Origin: a virus
DNA: 64,000 nucleotides
Virus record (IMG/VR): IMGVR_UViG_3300018080_000099
Coordinates: 64,001 to 128,000 of that record
Strand: one strand, 5' to 3'
Below the pieces are notes generated by a model. The model did not search any database. It saw nothing but the letters and a program-made list of their open reading frames with translations, and was not told the DNA's origin. Positions within the stretch are counted from its first letter, which is position 1. Every line of letters starts with the position of its first letter. Below, in pieces: positions 47,443 through 63,912 of the stretch. The translations under genes were made by a program, and so were the position numbers.

Positions 47443-47526
47443 GGCGGAGGACACGGGACTCGAACCCGCAACCCATTGCTGAGCGGACGCTTTCCAAGCG
47501 CCTTCCTAACCATTCGGTTATCCTCC
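47443..47526 (-). tRNA. tRNA-Ser(GGA), type II, CCA encoded
   Basis: acceptor GGAGGAT / GTCCTCC, G73, anticodon arm GGCGC TTGGAAA GCGTC, long variable arm, T-arm GCGGG TTCGAGT CCCGT. Confidence 0.65.
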
Positions 47527-47541
47527 GTAGAAGTATTTATA

Positions 47542-47775
47542 TCAAATATCAGTAGCTTTTCGATGTTTCTTGTATGCCTGACTCATTGCAATTGCAGTAT
47601 CAGAATCGGTTTTGCCCCAGACTTCTTCCACAGTCCATGTACCACTACCGTCTATTTTGATGACCTTACCGACTACAGCTTTGTCTGCTGGAATCCATGC
47701 AACGTACGCCTGTGTTCTTCCTTTGGTGTACGGCCTCATCAACAAACACTGCCTCATCTGGTAAGTCTTTTTCAT
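47542..47775 (-). CDS. hypothetical protein
   Basis: 77-aa ORF between tRNA genes. Confidence 0.4.
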   Translation of the reverse strand: MKKTYQMRQCLLMRPYTKGRTQAYVAWIPADKAVVGKVIKIDGSGTWTVEEVWGKTDSDTAIAMSQAYKKHRKATDI

Positions 47776-47785
47776 ATCAAGTTAA

Positions 47786-47873
47786 TGGCGGAAGATGAGG
47801 GACTTGAACCCCCAACACCTTATCGGTACTACATGTTTTCGAAACATGCTCCTCGTCCAGCCGGACATCTTCC
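47786..47873 (-). tRNA. tRNA-Ser(CGA), type II, CCA encoded
   Basis: anticodon arm CATGT TTCGAAA ACATG; T-arm GGGGG TTCAAGT CCCTC; G73. Confidence 0.65.
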
Positions 47874-48125
47874 GTTTGCTTTTTCCAATTGAACCCACAC
47901 TGAGGACACCAGTTTCCCGGTATCTGCCAGTGTCCACACTCAGGACATTTTATTTCGCCTAGCCATGTTGCCATTACGCTGCATCCCTGAGTTCTTCAAA
48001 GTAATCAAATTCAGCTTCAACGAAGTCCAAATCTTTGACTTCTTGTCTTGTCAGTGGGTCCCAGCCCACTCTTCTTGGATTGCGACACATTCTTATTGTG
48101 AGGATGCATAGAACCTCCTGAAATT

Positions 48126-48213
48126 TTGGTGCTCCGGGCCGGACTTGAACCGGCACGCCCGTTTAAGGACAATAGGGTTTAAGCCTACCGCGTCTGCCAT
48201 TCCACCACCGGAG
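48126..48213 (-). tRNA. tRNA-Leu(UAA), type II, CCA encoded
   Basis: acceptor GCTCCGG / CCGGAGC, A73; anticodon arm GTAGG CTTAAAC CCTAT; Leu-like D-arm GTGG AATGGCAGA CGCG. Confidence 0.7.
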
Positions 48214-48220
48214 CATAAAT

Positions 48221-48306
48221 TTGGTACCAGCGGGGGGACTTGAACCCCCACTCCCCGAAGGAAACTAGATTTTGAATCTAGCGCGTCTGCCATTCCACCA
48301 CGCTGG
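48221..48306 (-). tRNA. tRNA-Leu(CAA), type II, CCA encoded
   Basis: anticodon arm CTAGA TTCAAAA TCTAG; variable arm TTTCCTTCGGGGAG; A73. Confidence 0.7.
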
Positions 48307-48311
48307 CATAT

Positions 48312-48579
48312 CGCCCTAACAGCTAGGAACCTTTTTGACGACGACTCGTTCACTCACACCACATCCACACTTCAGGTTGTGAGGGAGGCTACAGTTACGC
48401 TAAATGCCTCGCACTCGGACTATACCGATTGTGGCACAGTATAGAACCGTTGCTATCTTCGCTATCCTGCATTTGTGCGCTTCGGTAGATAACCGATATT
48501 TACGTTCTTTAGAGCGCCTAGTTCACAGGTGCGTTTGTCGCTGTATGTTCCCGAGCCCTTACTCATAACTGTTAGGGCT
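48312..48579. ncRNA. ~270-nt ORF-free structured region closed by a perfect 10-bp long-range helix (GCCCTAACAG ... CTGTTAGGGC)
   Basis: inverted decamers at 48312-48321 and 48570-48579; internal GC-rich hairpins; no match to RNase P or tmRNA signatures that I could recognise. Confidence 0.35.
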
Positions 48580-48583
48580 TTGT

Positions 48584-48735
48584 TTATTTACCTCTTCTTG
48601 GTCGGTTTCCGCCACCATTTCCTCGGCCTGCTCCTCCACCACCACGTCTTGTGCCGGGTACTGGATTTGCGCCGGGACAGCTTCCTCTCTGTCCACCAGT
48701 GCGCGGTCCTGCTCCATTCGGTCCTCTTCCATCTC
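48584..48735 (-). CDS. 50-aa Gly/Arg-rich (RGG-like) peptide
   Basis: MPNRDGRGPNGAGPRTGGQRGSCPGANPVPGTRRGGGGAGRGNGGGNRPRRGK; strong RBS AAGGAGGG. Confidence 0.35.
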
Positions 48736-48786
48736 TGTTAGGCATTTTGCCCTCCTTTGATATTGTTAAAAATACTGAGAATTATA

Positions 48787-48873
48787 TGGCGGAGGATAGA
48801 GGACTTGAACCCCTAACGCCGTTAAGCGCTACTCGCTTTCAAGGCGAGCCCCTCGTCCAGCCGGACATCCTCC
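48787..48873 (-). tRNA. tRNA-Ser(UGA), type II, CCA encoded
   Basis: anticodon arm CTCGC CTTGAAA GCGAG; acceptor GGAGGAT; G73. Confidence 0.7.
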
Positions 48874-48882
48874 GTAACTTTC

Positions 48883-49197
48883 TTATTCGTCGCCTTCTTC
48901 AGGCTCTTCTATTGCGTAAATCTCAAGGTCGGTCAAAACTACCTTTAAAGGCATTCCCGCTGTATCGAACTCAACTCCCATTCCCGAATTCTTGAGGAAT
49001 CTCAGGATGTCACCTTCTTTGACATCCATTGGAATTCTTTGAGCGTTCTGATAATGGCCCGGACCTACTCCAACAACCTTCCCCCTGTAGTAGGGGTCTT
49101 TCTTTTCAACCAACACCAGTCCGCCCGGTGTTACTGTCTCTCCCTCATCGGGAATGATTTCAACAATGACTTTGTTATACAGCGGAACTAACTTCAT
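48883..49197 (-). CDS. groES: GroES-like co-chaperonin
   Basis: MKLVPLYNKVIVEI...GGLVLVEKK...GKVVGVGPG...VKEGDILRF...EIYAIEE follows the Cpn10 pattern. Confidence 0.7.
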   Translation of the reverse strand: MKLVPLYNKVIVEIIPDEGETVTPGGLVLVEKKDPYYRGKVVGVGPGHYQNAQRIPMDVKEGDILRFLKNSGMGVEFDTAGMPLKVVLTDLEIYAIEEPEEGDE

Positions 49198-49510
49198 AAG
49201 ACCTCCTTAAGATTTCTTAGATTCAACATACTTCCTGAGTTCAGTTTTCTCCGTCCAAGGCAATCCTTTCCAAGATGCCCTCAATTCCTTGTATTTAGCT
49301 TCATCGCCTCCTGAGGCGCGCCTTAACAGCTTAACAGCCTTCTTACGCATGGAACCTCCTATGAACTTATTTGCTCTGCCTTACAGACAGTACAGCGCCA
49401 ACCCTTCTGGTTTCCTTGTCCCTTTGTGGTTGGGTTCATGACTCGCATACCCTTGCCGTACTTTTTGTCCTGAAAGGCATTTTCGCATGTACACTTTCTG
49501 ATTGCCATTT

Positions 49511-62629: not shown

Positions 62630-62630
62630 A

Positions 62631-62718
62631 TGGTCTGGATGGAGGGATTTGAACCCCCGTTTCCTCAATGAGGACTCCGCCCCGAACGGAGTGGTCTACC
62701 AAGCTGACCCACATCCAG
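62631..62718 (-). tRNA. tRNA-Pro(CGG) with a 16-nt extra variable arm
   Basis: acceptor CTGGATG / CATCCAG, A73, CCA; anticodon arm CTCCG TTCGGGG CGGAG; variable arm TCCTCATTGAGGAAAC. Confidence 0.6.
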
Positions 62719-62768
62719 ATAATAACACTTTTTACTAACAGTAACATTGGGGATGTTACTATTGAAAT

Positions 62769-62846
62769 TTGGGGTGATAGAAGGGAGTCGAACCCTCACC
62801 TACTGATTCACAGTCAGTAATGCCACACCACTTACACCACTATCAC
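62769..62846 (-). tRNA. tRNA-His(GUG) with a G-1:C73 pair
   Basis: 5' extra G pairing with C73; anticodon arm ACTGA CTGTGAA TCAGT. Confidence 0.75.
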
Positions 62847-63059
62847 CATATAGACCGATACTTTTGAATCGCCTCGGTTCACCAGAAACTTCCTCTTGGA
62901 CAGCGATAAATTAATCGGGACTATCCTGCCGATTGAACGATAGGTTACTTAGTACTTTACTCTGAAAAAATCGCGCGCTTCTAACAGAGTGATTCAGTGT
63001 CGCGAACACCAAAACAACCTTTTACCCAGTAGGACTCGAACCTACATCTTTCCCTAACT

Positions 63060-63142
63060 TGGAGCACTAGGTGGGATTCGAACCCACGGTGATTATCTGA
63101 TTGGAAGTCAGACCCCTTCGACCGGACTCGGGACACTAGTGC
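63060..63142 (-). tRNA. tRNA-Gly(UCC), CCA encoded
   Basis: anticodon arm TCTGA CTTCCAA TCAGA; U73; 13-nt D-loop GAGTCCGGTCGAA. Confidence 0.65.
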
Positions 63143-63289
63143 TTGTGTTTGCGATATGGTACTAAAAGCGTACTATATCGCAACTGAAAATTTGGCGTGG
63201 TGATGAGGAAGTGAACCTCACATCTTCGGCTTATAATTAGGCGCGCACCTTTTGGCCGATATTCTACCAGTTGAACTACCTCCCAAAAT

Positions 63290-63380
63290 TGGCTGGCCGA
63301 GAGGGATTTGAACCCCCGTGTGAGCTTACGCTACGGCGGATTAACAGTCCGCTGCCTAAACCAGACTAGGCTATCGACCA
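63290..63380 (-). tRNA. tRNA-Asn(GUU) with an 18-nt extra variable arm
   Basis: U1-A72, G73, CCA; anticodon arm GCGGA CTGTTAA TCCGC (as in E. coli tRNA-Asn); variable arm CGTAGCGTAAGCTCACAC. Confidence 0.65.
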
Positions 63381-63487
63381 GTGTAAAGTGCAATAAGATG
63401 CACTATTATGTGTGTTAATGACAGAAACTGTCATTAATGCACATCATTATGTATCTAAAGTGCAATACATTGCACCTTTTGTTATCA

Positions 63488-63565
63488 TGGCTGGGGCAGA
63501 AGGATTTGAACCTTCGGTCTCCTGATTCAGAGTCAGGCGCTCTTGGCCAACTGAGCCATGCCCCA
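63488..63565 (-). tRNA. tRNA-Gln(CUG), canonical, CCA encoded
   Basis: U1-A72, G73; anticodon arm CCTGA CTCTGAA TCAGG. Confidence 0.8.
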
Positions 63566-63568
63566 ATA

Positions 63569-63644
63569 TGGTGCCACCGCGCGGAATTGAACCGCAGACA
63601 CCCTGCTCTTCAGGCAAGTGCTCTACCTACTGAGCTACAGTGGC
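63569..63644 (-). tRNA. tRNA-Phe(GAA), CCA encoded
   Basis: anticodon arm CTTGC CTGAAGA GCAGG; A73. Confidence 0.8.
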
Positions 63645-63647
63645 ATT

Positions 63648-63730
63648 TGGCAGGCCCGGAGGGATTCGAACCCCCATTGACTTTACGTCACGGTTTTGGA
63701 GACCGTTGCATCCCTGTCTGCCACGGACCT
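63648..63730 (-). tRNA. tRNA-Trp(CCA) with a 14-nt extra variable arm
   Basis: A1-U72, G73; anticodon arm ACGGT CTCCAAA ACCGT (as in E. coli tRNA-Trp); variable arm GACGTAAAGTCAAT. Confidence 0.65.
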
Positions 63731-63738
63731 GTAAAATT

Positions 63739-63808
63739 GGGCTGTGACGTTATCCTCGCCTTTTCTGGCCGATGTGCCAGCGTCCTATTAATATTAGACG
63801 AACAGCCC
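63739..63808. other. tRNA-sized cloverleaf-like element with a perfect 7-bp terminal helix but no T-loop consensus
   Basis: GGGCTGT ... ACAGCCC terminal helix; internal hairpins CTGGC CACATCG GCCAG and CGTC(12 nt)GACG. Confidence 0.3.
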
Positions 63809-63826
63809 GTGGTTCTAATTTACTTA

Positions 63827-63912
63827 TGGTGGGCCGGGAAGGAATCGAACCTTCACAGCCCGGAGGCGACAGGGTTACAGCCTGCTGATTTTGCCAATTT
63901 ACCATCCGACCC
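63827..63912 (-). tRNA. tRNA-Tyr(GUA), type II, CCA encoded
   Basis: anticodon arm GCAGG CTGTAAC CCTGT; T-arm GAAGG TTCGATT CCTTC; A73. Confidence 0.75.

Follow-up and report, generated by a model that had tools for sequence, protein, structure and literature searches.

How would a virus supply, mature and maintain a tRNA set that reads every sense codon? The question is raised by a 64,000-nucleotide stretch, positions 64,001 to 128,000 of the IMG/VR virus record IMGVR_UViG_3300018080_000099 (hereafter the window, whose own coordinates are used throughout), which carries at 47442-63912 an island of tRNA genes and, within this island on the same minus strand, a 255-nt homologue of the bacterial type-A RNase P RNA (52247-52501). 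We favour, with a probability of roughly two in three, the reading that the island is a self-contained module for tRNA supply, processing and repair, belonging to a huge phage with a genome of at least 264 kb. The tRNA set itself is of an already known kind: the new part is the RNase P RNA, which lacks the specificity domain and which the preliminary description of the window had passed over, together with the extra arms on several class-I tRNAs. RNase P counts among the housekeeping enzymes held to be universal in cells; if the reading holds, virus-encoded translation functions would extend to the maturation of tRNA 5' ends, and the RNase P RNA may account in part for the speed at which an infecting phage matures several dozen closely spaced tRNAs.

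The compact RNA aligns with positions 1-367 of the RF00010 model at 75.6 bits (E=1.2e-21). The match appears only with permissive Rfam filters, the gathering score of the model being 100 bits, and it is because the RNA lies below this score that standard annotation misses it; no family of Rfam 15 fits it better. It occupies the gap that extends from the stop codon of a metallo-beta-lactamase (MBL)-fold open reading frame (ORF) to the start codon of an HNH endonuclease ORF. Both the alignment and the sequence reveal intact P1, P2, P3, conserved region I (CR-I, AGGAAAGUC), P4 with its bulged U, P5 and the J5/15 segment GCAAG, as well as P15-P16 with GGGUA in L15, a P18 hairpin with a GAAA loop, the J18/2 segment AAAUG and conserved region V (CR-V, ACAGAAUCCUGCUUACA). 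Hence the type-A catalytic core (CR-I, CR-V with the pattern ACAGAAnCC...GCUUA, and the bulged-U P4, in which an A-U/G-C exchange is seen) is present along with the catalytic-domain helices P1, P2, P3, P5 and P15-P18, whereas the specificity domain (P7-P14) is missing: some 38 nt (14+12+12) stand where the model has about 140 positions. The RNA folds better than all of 200 shuffled versions (200/200, z = -3.4). In bacterial RNase P RNAs the L15 GGU motif pairs with the tRNA 3'-RCCA, and the specificity domain binds the elbow formed by the T-loop and D-loop. The motif is found as GGGUA in the window copy and as GGGTAG in the majority of the family alignment described below, some copies appearing to deviate in a region where that alignment is unreliable. 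The window RNA thus shares with bacterial type-A RNAs such as Escherichia coli M1 the helices P1-P5, P15 and P18, CR-I, CR-V, the bulged-U P4 and the L15 GGU, and differs from them in its lack of the specificity domain, its phage origin, its location in a tRNA island and its score below the gathering threshold. It is also considerably shorter, with 255 nt against approximately 400 nt for typical bacterial RNase P RNAs (PMC5066622).

This RNA belongs to a viral family. When IMG/VR is searched for both core motifs separated by a compact gap, 26 loci are recovered (13 with a gap of 130-160 nt and 13 with 161-190 nt), where by a rough estimate well under one match is expected by chance, and the Rfam matches and neighbouring tRNA genes described next leave chance of no importance; these counts are lower bounds, and the patterns miss the Rfam-verified copy of phage Zooman. 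When nine of the loci were re-tested with Rfam, each of the nine aligned with the full RF00010 model, over 206-249 nt and at E values of 3e-11 to 3e-31, one of them (L035, in our numbering of comparison sequences) passing the gathering score at 105.5 bits. Together with the window and Zooman copies the members span 206-255 nt, and the viral copies are 36-50% identical to that of the window. In 21 of the 26 loci the stored flanks contain tRNA genes called by ARAGORN, essentially all on the strand of the RNA, and in 19 of the 26 the nearest tRNA is 13-98 nt away; in a comparison set of 13 loci fetched via RtcB, one has an array of at least three tRNAs. A blastn search with the window RNA further matches three cultured Microbacterium phages of about 192 kb, among them Big4 (ON637770, near 91953-91987) and Zooman (OK040793.1, approximately 89338-89558; L092 3827-4047, plus strand). 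The 221-nt Zooman RNA (RF00010, E=1.5e-15) exactly fills an unannotated gap between tRNA-Arg(CCG) and tRNA-Arg(CCU) on the tRNA strand, and therefore processing of the tRNA ends would release it from the transcript; genes for an HNH endonuclease, endonuclease VII and RtcB are its neighbours.

The helices of the family covary. In an RNAalifold consensus of the window RNA and its six closest relatives, 30 of 50 pairs show compensatory double changes, with support for P1, P3, the long-range P4, P5, a stub stem and P15-P17. An alignment-free comparison, in which the strands of a helix are exchanged among 25 distinct copies, gives the same picture: P2 pairs at -13.8 kcal/mol with its own strands against -9.2 kcal/mol with those of other copies (p=4e-9), and P1 at -15.4 against -10.1 kcal/mol (p=6e-8). 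These comparisons show the predicted helices of the compact RNA to be maintained by compensatory change, a pattern that is not that of a decaying pseudogene.

The mechanism we propose runs as follows. The tRNAs would be transcribed as polycistronic precursors, and the phage RNase P RNA, probably with host RnpA, would cut the 5' end of each; given the encoded CCA and the spacers of 1-9 nt, a 5' cut would nearly complete the 3' end of the upstream tRNA as well. RtcB, a SpoU methylase, PTH2 and a macro-domain phosphatase would provide repair and rescue, an Apyc1-like enzyme counter-defence, and the whole would keep phage translation going if the tRNAs of the host do not suit the phage, are shut off or come under attack. 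The array was probably invaded by HNH homing endonucleases, as other tRNA clusters of phages have been. The more specific proposal, that phage tRNA arrays encode their own minimal RNase P, a descendant of bacterial type-A RNase P RNA reduced to the catalytic domain, co-transcribed with the tRNAs and maturing phage pre-tRNAs with host RnpA or without protein, we put forward tentatively and at slightly less than even odds. The ribozyme activity that we infer for the phage RNA is plausible because reduced forms act elsewhere: constructs of the E. coli RNase P RNA restricted to the catalytic domain cleave substrate in vitro at reduced efficiency (PMC5839562), and the type T of Pyrobaculum is a reduced RNase P (PMC13462272). 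The E. coli constructs have the same catalytic-domain-only architecture as the window RNA and are engineered; the Pyrobaculum enzyme is archaeal and acts with archaeal proteins, whereas the window RNA is natural, bacterial in type and virus-encoded. If the proposal is true, the RNA would be the first viral RNase P known to function and a naturally occurring minimal form of the bacterial enzyme, found both in uncultured huge phages, that of the window included, and in Microbacterium phages; the latter are cultured with a known host, which makes the idea directly testable, and the element is unannotated in the deposited Zooman genome.

Several observations weigh against this reading. The score of the window RNA is, as stated, under the gathering threshold; the RNA is flanked by protein genes, with the nearest tRNA 429 nt away; and the window contains no virion genes. 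Profile searches find no RnpA gene in the 64 kb, and across the viral loci no protein family recurs widely beside the RNA, which is why the protein partner is assumed to be supplied by the host. The compact RNA is likewise absent from the tRNA region of phage XacN1 and from the examined 21 kb of L007, a distantly related phage sequence, which rules out its universality among tRNA-rich phages. Finally, since the 3' CCA is the partner of the L15 GGU, arrays with the RNA were predicted to encode CCA; whereas this is so for 19/19 and, in the island, 43/46 tRNAs, other arrays have it in 0/27, 1/29 and 3/37, so that a dependence of the compact RNase P on encoded CCA was given up. Two candidate partners were also rejected. 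A dedicated phage protein cofactor finds neither an RnpA in the window nor any recurrent neighbour other than in a cluster of three loci (L022, L034 and L038); the adjacent MBL-fold gene, considered as an RNase Z-like partner for the ribozyme, lies next to the RNA in no other locus and encodes an Apyc1-like protein. As a separate observation, the three clustered loci, whose RNase P RNAs are the closest to that of the window, have a conserved ORF directly downstream of the RNA (L022 5808-6806, L034 497-1228, L038 10305-11030 on the minus strand) without Pfam match (nor, for the L022 copy, a PHROG match), and their stored flanks contain one tRNA (L034) or none.

The tRNA set on which the module would act is large. 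ARAGORN predicts 46 tRNA genes in the island, all on the minus strand, and one tRNA(CUA) elsewhere, 47 in the window. With the gathering threshold and default filters Rfam gives 41 island matches to RF00005, and with permissive filters 44 of at least 29 bits, of which 43 correspond to genes called by ARAGORN; for two Ser tRNAs, because of their class-II shape, the tRNA-Sec model of the same Rfam clan gives the higher score, and a Met tRNA (59321-59395) is called by ARAGORN alone, with no match in Rfam. Beyond the ARAGORN genes, Rfam adds an Ala(UGC)-like candidate (60903-60975), a tRNA-like sequence (59238-59317) and two degenerate remnants, so that the island total is 46-48. This is close to the "about 50" of the preliminary description and above the roughly 40 which it had set as its lower limit, and its further statements that nearly all genes lie on the minus strand, that all 20 amino acids are decoded (by 39 distinct sense anticodons) and that most tRNAs encode CCA (43/46, the exceptions being Met 53326, Lys-CUU 57227 and Ala 61567) are borne out as well; its isoacceptor counts of five for Arg and six for Leu have to be lowered to four and five. 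Spacers between neighbouring tRNA genes are short, at most 9 nt in 19/46 and in many cases a single nucleotide. The best sigma-70-like sites of the minus strand sit immediately upstream of tRNA clusters (e.g. at 55357, 53978 and 50958), and the total of such sites is not higher than the shuffled expectation. As the last tRNA lies within 88 nt of the window end, the island may run past it.

A second puzzle of the island is presented by class-I tRNAs with class-II-like arms. Eight of them possess extra variable regions of about 13-22 nt, most being hairpins of 3-4 bp, often capped by GUAA, GUAAA or UAAA loops: tRNA-Cys(GCA) (50015-50108, 94 nt, long variable region with a GAC-GUAA-GUC hairpin, U73; RF00005 45.5 bits), tRNA-Gln(UUG) (50348-50437, 90 nt, arm UGAC-UAAA-GUCA, U1-A72, G73; 57.5 bits), a Met(CAU)-type tRNA (53326-53409, arm CCC-AUUU-GGG; 52.2 bits), tRNA-Asp(GUC) (54314-54403, 90 nt, long variable region, G73; 60.9 bits), tRNA-Ile(GAU) (62350-62435, 86 nt, arm GGC-GUAAA-GCC; 53.5 bits), tRNA-Pro(CGG) (62631-62718, 88 nt, arm CCUC-AUU-GAGG, C1-G72, A73; 50 bits), tRNA-Asn(GUU) (63290-63380, 91 nt, arm AGC-GUAA-GCU, U1-A72, G73; 54.7 bits) and tRNA-Trp(CCA) (63648-63730, 83 nt, arm GAC-GUAAA-GUC, A1-U72, G73; 47.3 bits). 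A stem-loop in the variable region is what they have in common with the class-II tRNAs for Leu, Ser and Tyr, whose identities are absent among them. Their discriminator and 1:72 bases (U73 in Cys, U1-A72 and G73 in Gln and Asn, C1-G72 and A73 in Pro, A1-U72 and G73 in Trp), judged by the identity rules of E. coli, fit the cognate amino acids, and hence in sequence they look like cognate tRNAs with an arm added and not like Ser- or Leu-type tRNAs with a switched anticodon. They also differ from allo-tRNAs, which have an 8/4 or 9/3 shape, in their acceptor and T stems of 7/5 (PMC5389517). The arm recurs elsewhere: long tRNA-Asn genes are present in the arrays L019, L026, L031 and L033, and their stems each differ while remaining self-complementary (GUC/GAC, GAAC/GUUC, GCC/GGC and CGG/CCG), a result that comes from direct reading of the five hairpins, the MAFFT/RNAalifold alignment having misplaced the variable arms. 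A homologue of the Met-type tRNA, 71% identical and with an arm CUC-GAAA-GAG, is present in the distantly related phage L007 (4065-4153, plus strand), and the annotation of XacN1 contains long class-I tRNAs as well (Cys 89, Asn 89 and Thr 91 nt, also long Lys and Gly). Our full-text literature search found no paper on class-I phage tRNAs with extra arms. The arms may be linked to the compact RNase P: an enzyme that has ceased to read the tRNA elbow might tolerate such changes or might use them for recognition. Separately, the U1.U72 mismatch seen by eye in the Met-type tRNA at 53326-53409 recalls the 1:72 mismatch of initiators, and initiator, elongator and Ile2-type tRNA are all candidate identities for it.

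These arms bear directly on the best surviving alternative, namely that the set serves counter-defence: nuclease-resistant tRNAs would replace host tRNAs cut by PARIS, retron Ptu, PrrC or Schlafen-type systems, and the arms and divergent duplicates would evade recognition. We consider this a possibility to be taken seriously, though one that falls short of the processing module and is compatible with it. Phage tRNAs have been found to rescue infection from tRNA-targeting defences (PMC10264068, PMC11464382, PMC11555353), and some defences cut the variable loop of tRNAs (PMC13096335). In the island the eight armed tRNAs have the cognate discriminator and 1:72 features as read above, Asp and Ile each occur in one normal and one long-arm version, and genes for RtcB, PTH2 and an Apyc1-like enzyme are nearby; yet the evasion known so far involves one or a few tRNAs with changes in the anticodon loop and not a complete set. 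The preliminary description had seen in the set a strong independence from host tRNA pools or from tRNA-depleting defences: the complete set and its repair, rescue and counter-defence neighbours do fit a reduced dependence on the host supply, and a link to tRNA-depleting defences is something we infer at most.

The coverage of the set, in turn, speaks to codon compensation, in which the tRNAs would top up codons that are common in the phage and rare in the host, with no special role for the RNase P-like RNA. Codon usage in the window is fairly even, at 44% GC, and could differ from that of a biased host. The anticodons, however, are not a biased subset: by standard wobble and an expanded U34 wobble for Ala GCC and Pro CCU/CCC (textbook rules, as we applied them) the 39 sense anticodons of the island read all 61 sense codons, and the predicted genes of the window use all 61, which answers the comparison of anticodon set and codon usage that had been proposed for the locus. 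Seven anticodons are present in two copies, and dosage alone would not explain them. While the two tRNA-Glu(UUC) genes (53872-53945 and 61727-61800; 62.6 and 64.6 bits) are 95% identical, the other six pairs are only 58-76% identical and are, on their sequences, distinct versions and not recent duplications: among them tRNA-Lys(UUU) (54009-54084 and 55535-55612, 62.7 and 70 bits, 67% identical), tRNA-Lys(CUU) (57227-57300 and 57736-57810, 68 and 48.9 bits, 61%), and the standard-length counterparts of the long tRNAs for Asp(GUC) (55067-55145, 68.2 bits, 63%) and Ile(GAU) (50687-50764, 41.2 bits, 62%). As the putative processing ribozyme and the repair genes also point beyond a top-up, we regard codon compensation as an unlikely account of the island.

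The reading of the RNA as an enzyme must also be set against the view that it is none, being either a decoy that sequesters host RnpA and so shuts down tRNA maturation in the host, or a decaying fragment of a captured host rnpB. For this view speak the loss of the specificity domain, the score under the gathering threshold, the lack of a phage protein cofactor in the window and among the neighbours of the viral loci, and the precedent of the camelpox RNase P-like RNA, which is inactive in vitro (PMC3001073). A decaying fragment, on the other hand, is contradicted by more than 26 highly divergent viral copies at 36-50% identity to that of the window, with compensatory changes in P1, P2, P4 and P5; for a pure protein sponge the bulged-U P4 and the L15 GGU kept by the window copy would be needless; and the place of the RNAs in same-strand tRNA arrays fits the processing of those tRNAs. 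Cellular genomes add a further argument. Outside viruses the compact form gives 50 matches in 185,579 species genomes, almost all on contigs of metagenome-assembled genomes (MAGs) and one of the 50 in a tRNA array; these genome and MAG contigs rule out that the form is exclusive to phages. Many of these copies, of about 245 nt, come from Elusimicrobiota or from Shapirobacteria and Dojkabacteria of the candidate phyla radiation (CPR), and one from a Pseudomonas isolate (examples outside tRNA arrays are L057 4085-4330, L064 514-758 and L091 1169-1417). Three non-array copies pass Rfam thresholds when re-scored, at 137 bits (Elusimicrobiota), 187 bits (the Pseudomonas isolate) and, with the archaeal model, 102 bits (Shapirobacteria). 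If the compact RNA is the only RNase P RNA of such cells, these copies suggest that the reduced architecture can suffice in vivo; the viral form is marked by its embedding in tRNA arrays and its strong divergence. Accounts without enzymatic activity therefore strike us as rather improbable, and the phage RNAs, if they are active, would be a natural experiment on how little ribozyme suffices in a bacterial cell.

The assignment of the island to a huge phage rests on relatives, PHROG matches of several island proteins and gene content. A 263,805-nt ENA contig (ERZ27256796 k141_2651556; L041) encodes the RtcB of the window and is 100% identical to it over 21,350 nt (window 20860-42209); therefore the window would derive from a huge phage. 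The right-hand 11.5 kb of the window are matched only by a 4.6-kb Logan contig (L001), 100% identical to 57181-61788; the window end has no match in IMG/VR or the JGI metagenomes, and among deposited phages there is no close DNA relative, only single tRNA-sized matches. Relatives of the RtcB occur on IMG/VR contigs of up to 424 kb, and its best match among deposited phages, at 44.5% identity, belongs to a 735-kb uncultured huge phage. Coordinate arithmetic places the expected end of the ENA contig at about 52523, which is upstream of the RNase P RNA by some 22 nt; the break in the assembly apparently falls within the island. That the sequence is not viral but a tRNA array on a plasmid, a megaplasmid or a small cellular genome is very improbable: virion and packaging genes are absent from the 64 kb, tRNA arrays do occur on plasmids and chromosomes (the Anabaena trn operon, PMC10272220; mycobacteria, PMC6582537) and some large putative plasmids have similar suites of translation-related genes (Al-Shayeb et al., PMC7162821), but IMG/VR viral contigs carry relatives of both the RtcB, with its 735-kb huge-phage match, and the RNase P RNA, several island proteins have PHROG matches, AT-rich HNH genes break up the array as they do in phage Zooman, and DNA methylases with NAD-salvage and RNA-repair genes form the typical jumbo-phage mix (PMC7824862).

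Compared with known phages, the completeness claimed by the preliminary description stands, and its view that such a set is unusual even for jumbo phages does not: in XacN1 all 20 amino acids are served by tRNAs, 26 canonical species in each terminal repeat and 56 genes in total (PMC5852040), and huge phages have up to 67 tRNAs (Al-Shayeb et al. 2020, PMC7162821). These clusters share with the island dozens of tRNAs for all 20 amino acids, a CUA suppressor, a peptidyl-tRNA hydrolase and nearby RNA-repair genes. With 46-48 distinct genes and 39 sense anticodons, against the 26 canonical species per XacN1 repeat, the island is at the high end of known phage tRNA sets and within their range, one of the more complete viral decoding sets. 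The difference lies in the RNase P RNA, which neither of the two papers mentions. A 2.5-kb unannotated gap in the XacN1 tRNA region (AP018399.1; L093) holds instead a tmRNA and a GOLLD RNA (227 bits) at 37177-37596 and 38570-38983 on the plus strand. The IMG/VR array L025 combines GOLLD (5642-6103) with a compact RNase P RNA, and GOLLD and tmRNA are seen among L025, L039 and XacN1. We know of no activity of GOLLD. Theta (HDV-like) ribozymes are likewise located among phage tRNA genes and process tRNA ends (PMC10879173); they are small, self-cleaving and act in cis on 3' ends, whereas an RNase P homologue would act in trans on 5' ends. No report of a phage-encoded RNase P RNA emerged from our full-text literature search, beyond whose reach most subscription journals lie. 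The only viral RNase P-like RNA found in the literature is that of camelpox, which has some secondary-structure similarity to RNase P RNAs (PMC3001073); it comes from a eukaryotic virus without tRNA arrays, whereas the matches of the phage RNAs extend over the whole covariance model, at E values down to 1e-31.

The protein genes of the island are consistent with the inventory of the preliminary description, in which AT-rich HNH genes, a PTH2 hydrolase and a B12 radical-SAM gene interrupt the array. Six HNH-type ORFs, all on the minus strand as are the other island ORFs, are rich in AT, with 28-35% GC where the window has 44%, and some have relatives within other phage tRNA arrays. They comprise 51833-52246 (137 aa, 31% GC; PF01844 28.9 bits), 55616-56209 (197 aa, 29% GC; PF01844 22.3 bits), 57302-57679 (125 aa; PF01844 20.7 bits, just under the cut-off, with tblastn matches to ORFs within the L033 and L036 tRNA arrays), 60010-60456 (148 aa; PF01844 weak at 18 bits, with a 100% identical 148-aa gene on the Logan contig L001), 60925-61536 (203 aa, 187 aa as called on L001, 28% GC; weak HNH_3/HNH_2) and 61786-62151 (121 aa, 30% GC, HNH-like without Pfam match, a paralogue of ORF 57302-57679 by tblastn). 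The PTH2-type peptidyl-tRNA hydrolase (56533-57039, 168 aa) matches PF01981 at 110.9 bits over profile positions 1-115 of 115, and the B12-binding radical-SAM enzyme (57812-59131, 439 aa; PF02310 and PF04055) has weak Protein Data Bank (PDB) matches to TokK and RimO and no relatives found in IMG/VR. A macro-domain "phosphatase" ORF (49511-50002, 163 aa) matches PHROG 335 (E=7e-42) and, weakly, Pfam Macro (21.6 bits), and a 249-aa ORF (50965-51714) has no Pfam or PHROG match.

What had been described as an MBL-fold nuclease (52500-53312, 270 aa) does have the MBL fold, and the nuclease part of the description is not supported. It matches PF23023 at 107.6 bits (cut-off 50) and the Apyc1 structures PDB 7u2s (E=9e-29) and 7u2r with E values of about 1e-28 over residues 7-237, a full-length match, against a partial match only to RNase Z (E=6e-6); no database record of the protein itself was found by protein look-up. 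From these profile matches the protein is better read as a homologue of the anti-Pycsar cyclic-nucleotide phosphodiesterase, the partial RNase Z match leaving a putative RNA-processing role formally open.

Outside the island, on the plus strand, lie RtcB RNA ligase (30860-32209; PF01139 220 bits) and, just upstream of it, a SpoU-family RNA 2'-O-methyltransferase (29836-30465; PF00588 53.1 bits, gene call on L041). Jumbo-phage RtcB and PTH2 have been interpreted as agents of tRNA repair and ribosome rescue (PMC7824862). The CUA suppressor-type tRNA that the preliminary description placed elsewhere in the window is located downstream of RtcB at 34202-34278 on the plus strand (no CCA; ARAGORN, RF00005 54.5 bits); the order RtcB then tRNA(CUA) is common to the window and L007 (10001-12808), and the two CUA tRNAs are 74% identical. 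Despite this tRNA, the genes within the window give no recoding signal for TAG or the other stops, and TAG recoding was rejected: of the three stops, TAG is the one whose reading as sense raises ORF coverage least (0.76 to 0.805), and TAG ends 14 of 88 ORFs. The tRNA(CUA), at about 34.3 kb, is also where the coding strand and GC skew switch.

The remaining island tRNAs, all called by ARAGORN and given here with their RF00005 scores unless otherwise stated, begin with tRNA-Ser(GGA) (47442-47526, 85 nt, 30.1 bits), tRNA-Ser(CGA) (47786-47873, 88 nt, tRNA-Sec model 35.1 bits), tRNA-Leu(UAA) (48127-48214, 51.6 bits), tRNA-Leu(CAA) (48222-48307, 53.2 bits) and tRNA-Ser(UGA) (48787-48873, tRNA-Sec model 41.2 bits). 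These are followed by tRNA-Gly(GCC) (50445-50521, 65.2 bits), tRNA-Val(GAC) (50766-50843, 63.1 bits, with a 1-nt spacer on either side), tRNA-Val(UAC) (50845-50921, 74.5 bits), tRNA-Ile(UAU), which reads AUA (51761-51834, 33.3 bits with permissive filters), tRNA-Arg(CCU) (53492-53567, 57.8 bits), tRNA-Arg(UCU) (53573-53649, 70.2 bits), tRNA-Leu(UAG) (54086-54171, 43.4 bits), tRNA-Arg(ACG) (55153-55229, 62.2 bits), tRNA-Arg(UCG) (55239-55315, 64.4 bits), tRNA-Leu(CAG) (56994-57080, 55.7 bits) and tRNA-Leu(GAG) (57137-57221, 49.3 bits). The Met(CAU)-type tRNA at 59321-59395 (75 nt) has, 3 nt downstream of it, the tRNA-like sequence at 59238-59317 (36.8 bits), which lacks CCA, has an anticodon loop enlarged to about 9 nt and may be either a pseudogene or a tRNA that decodes in an unusual way. 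Further along are tRNA-Thr(CGU) (59726-59799, 64.6 bits), tRNA-Thr(GGU) (59951-60025, 41.7 bits with permissive filters), tRNA-Thr(UGU) (60429-60506, 54.9 bits) and tRNA-Ser(GCU) (60515-60604, 52.6 bits). The candidate second tRNA-Ala(UGC) at 60903-60975 (26.4 bits, below gathering) has a cloverleaf with G3.U70, A73 and CCA and overlaps the 3' end of an HNH ORF; the ARAGORN-called tRNA-Ala(UGC) (61567-61641, 60.8 bits) has G3.U70 as well. The series ends with tRNA-Pro(UGG) in two copies (61648-61725, 61.2 bits; 62551-62629, 42.3 bits), tRNA-Glu(CUC) (62273-62348, 50.5 bits), tRNA-His(GUG) (62770-62846, 54.8 bits), tRNA-Gly(UCC) (63060-63142, 83 nt with enlarged D and variable loops, 51.4 bits), tRNA-Gln(CUG) (63488-63565, 70.9 bits), tRNA-Phe(GAA) (63569-63644, 64.1 bits) and the class-II tRNA-Tyr(GUA) (63827-63912, 32.1 bits). 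Among the minus-strand promoter-like sites, four share the form TTGACA-17/18-TATTTT (59719-59691, 53978-53950, 50958-50930 and 46745-46716), two of them directly upstream of tRNA clusters.

The rest of the window encodes thioredoxin, three DNA methylases, UDG, HSP20 and RimK. A PnuC nicotinamide-mononucleotide transporter (4160-4720, plus strand) and a NadR-like protein (8903-9880, plus strand, AAA_28 and a cytidylyltransferase-like domain) form an NAD+ salvage pair as reported for jumbo phages. Three radical-SAM proteins are present (16179-17060 and 19666-20559 on the plus strand, 57812-59131 on the minus strand), of which only the one in the island has a B12-binding domain, and a 490-aa DUF2828/DUF7788 protein (36988-38460, minus strand) is encoded near RtcB. 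At 18199-19212 on the plus strand lies a homologue of glutamate-receptor-type ligand-gated ion channels, combining SBP_bac_3, an ion-channel pore and the Lig_chan glutamate-binding site.

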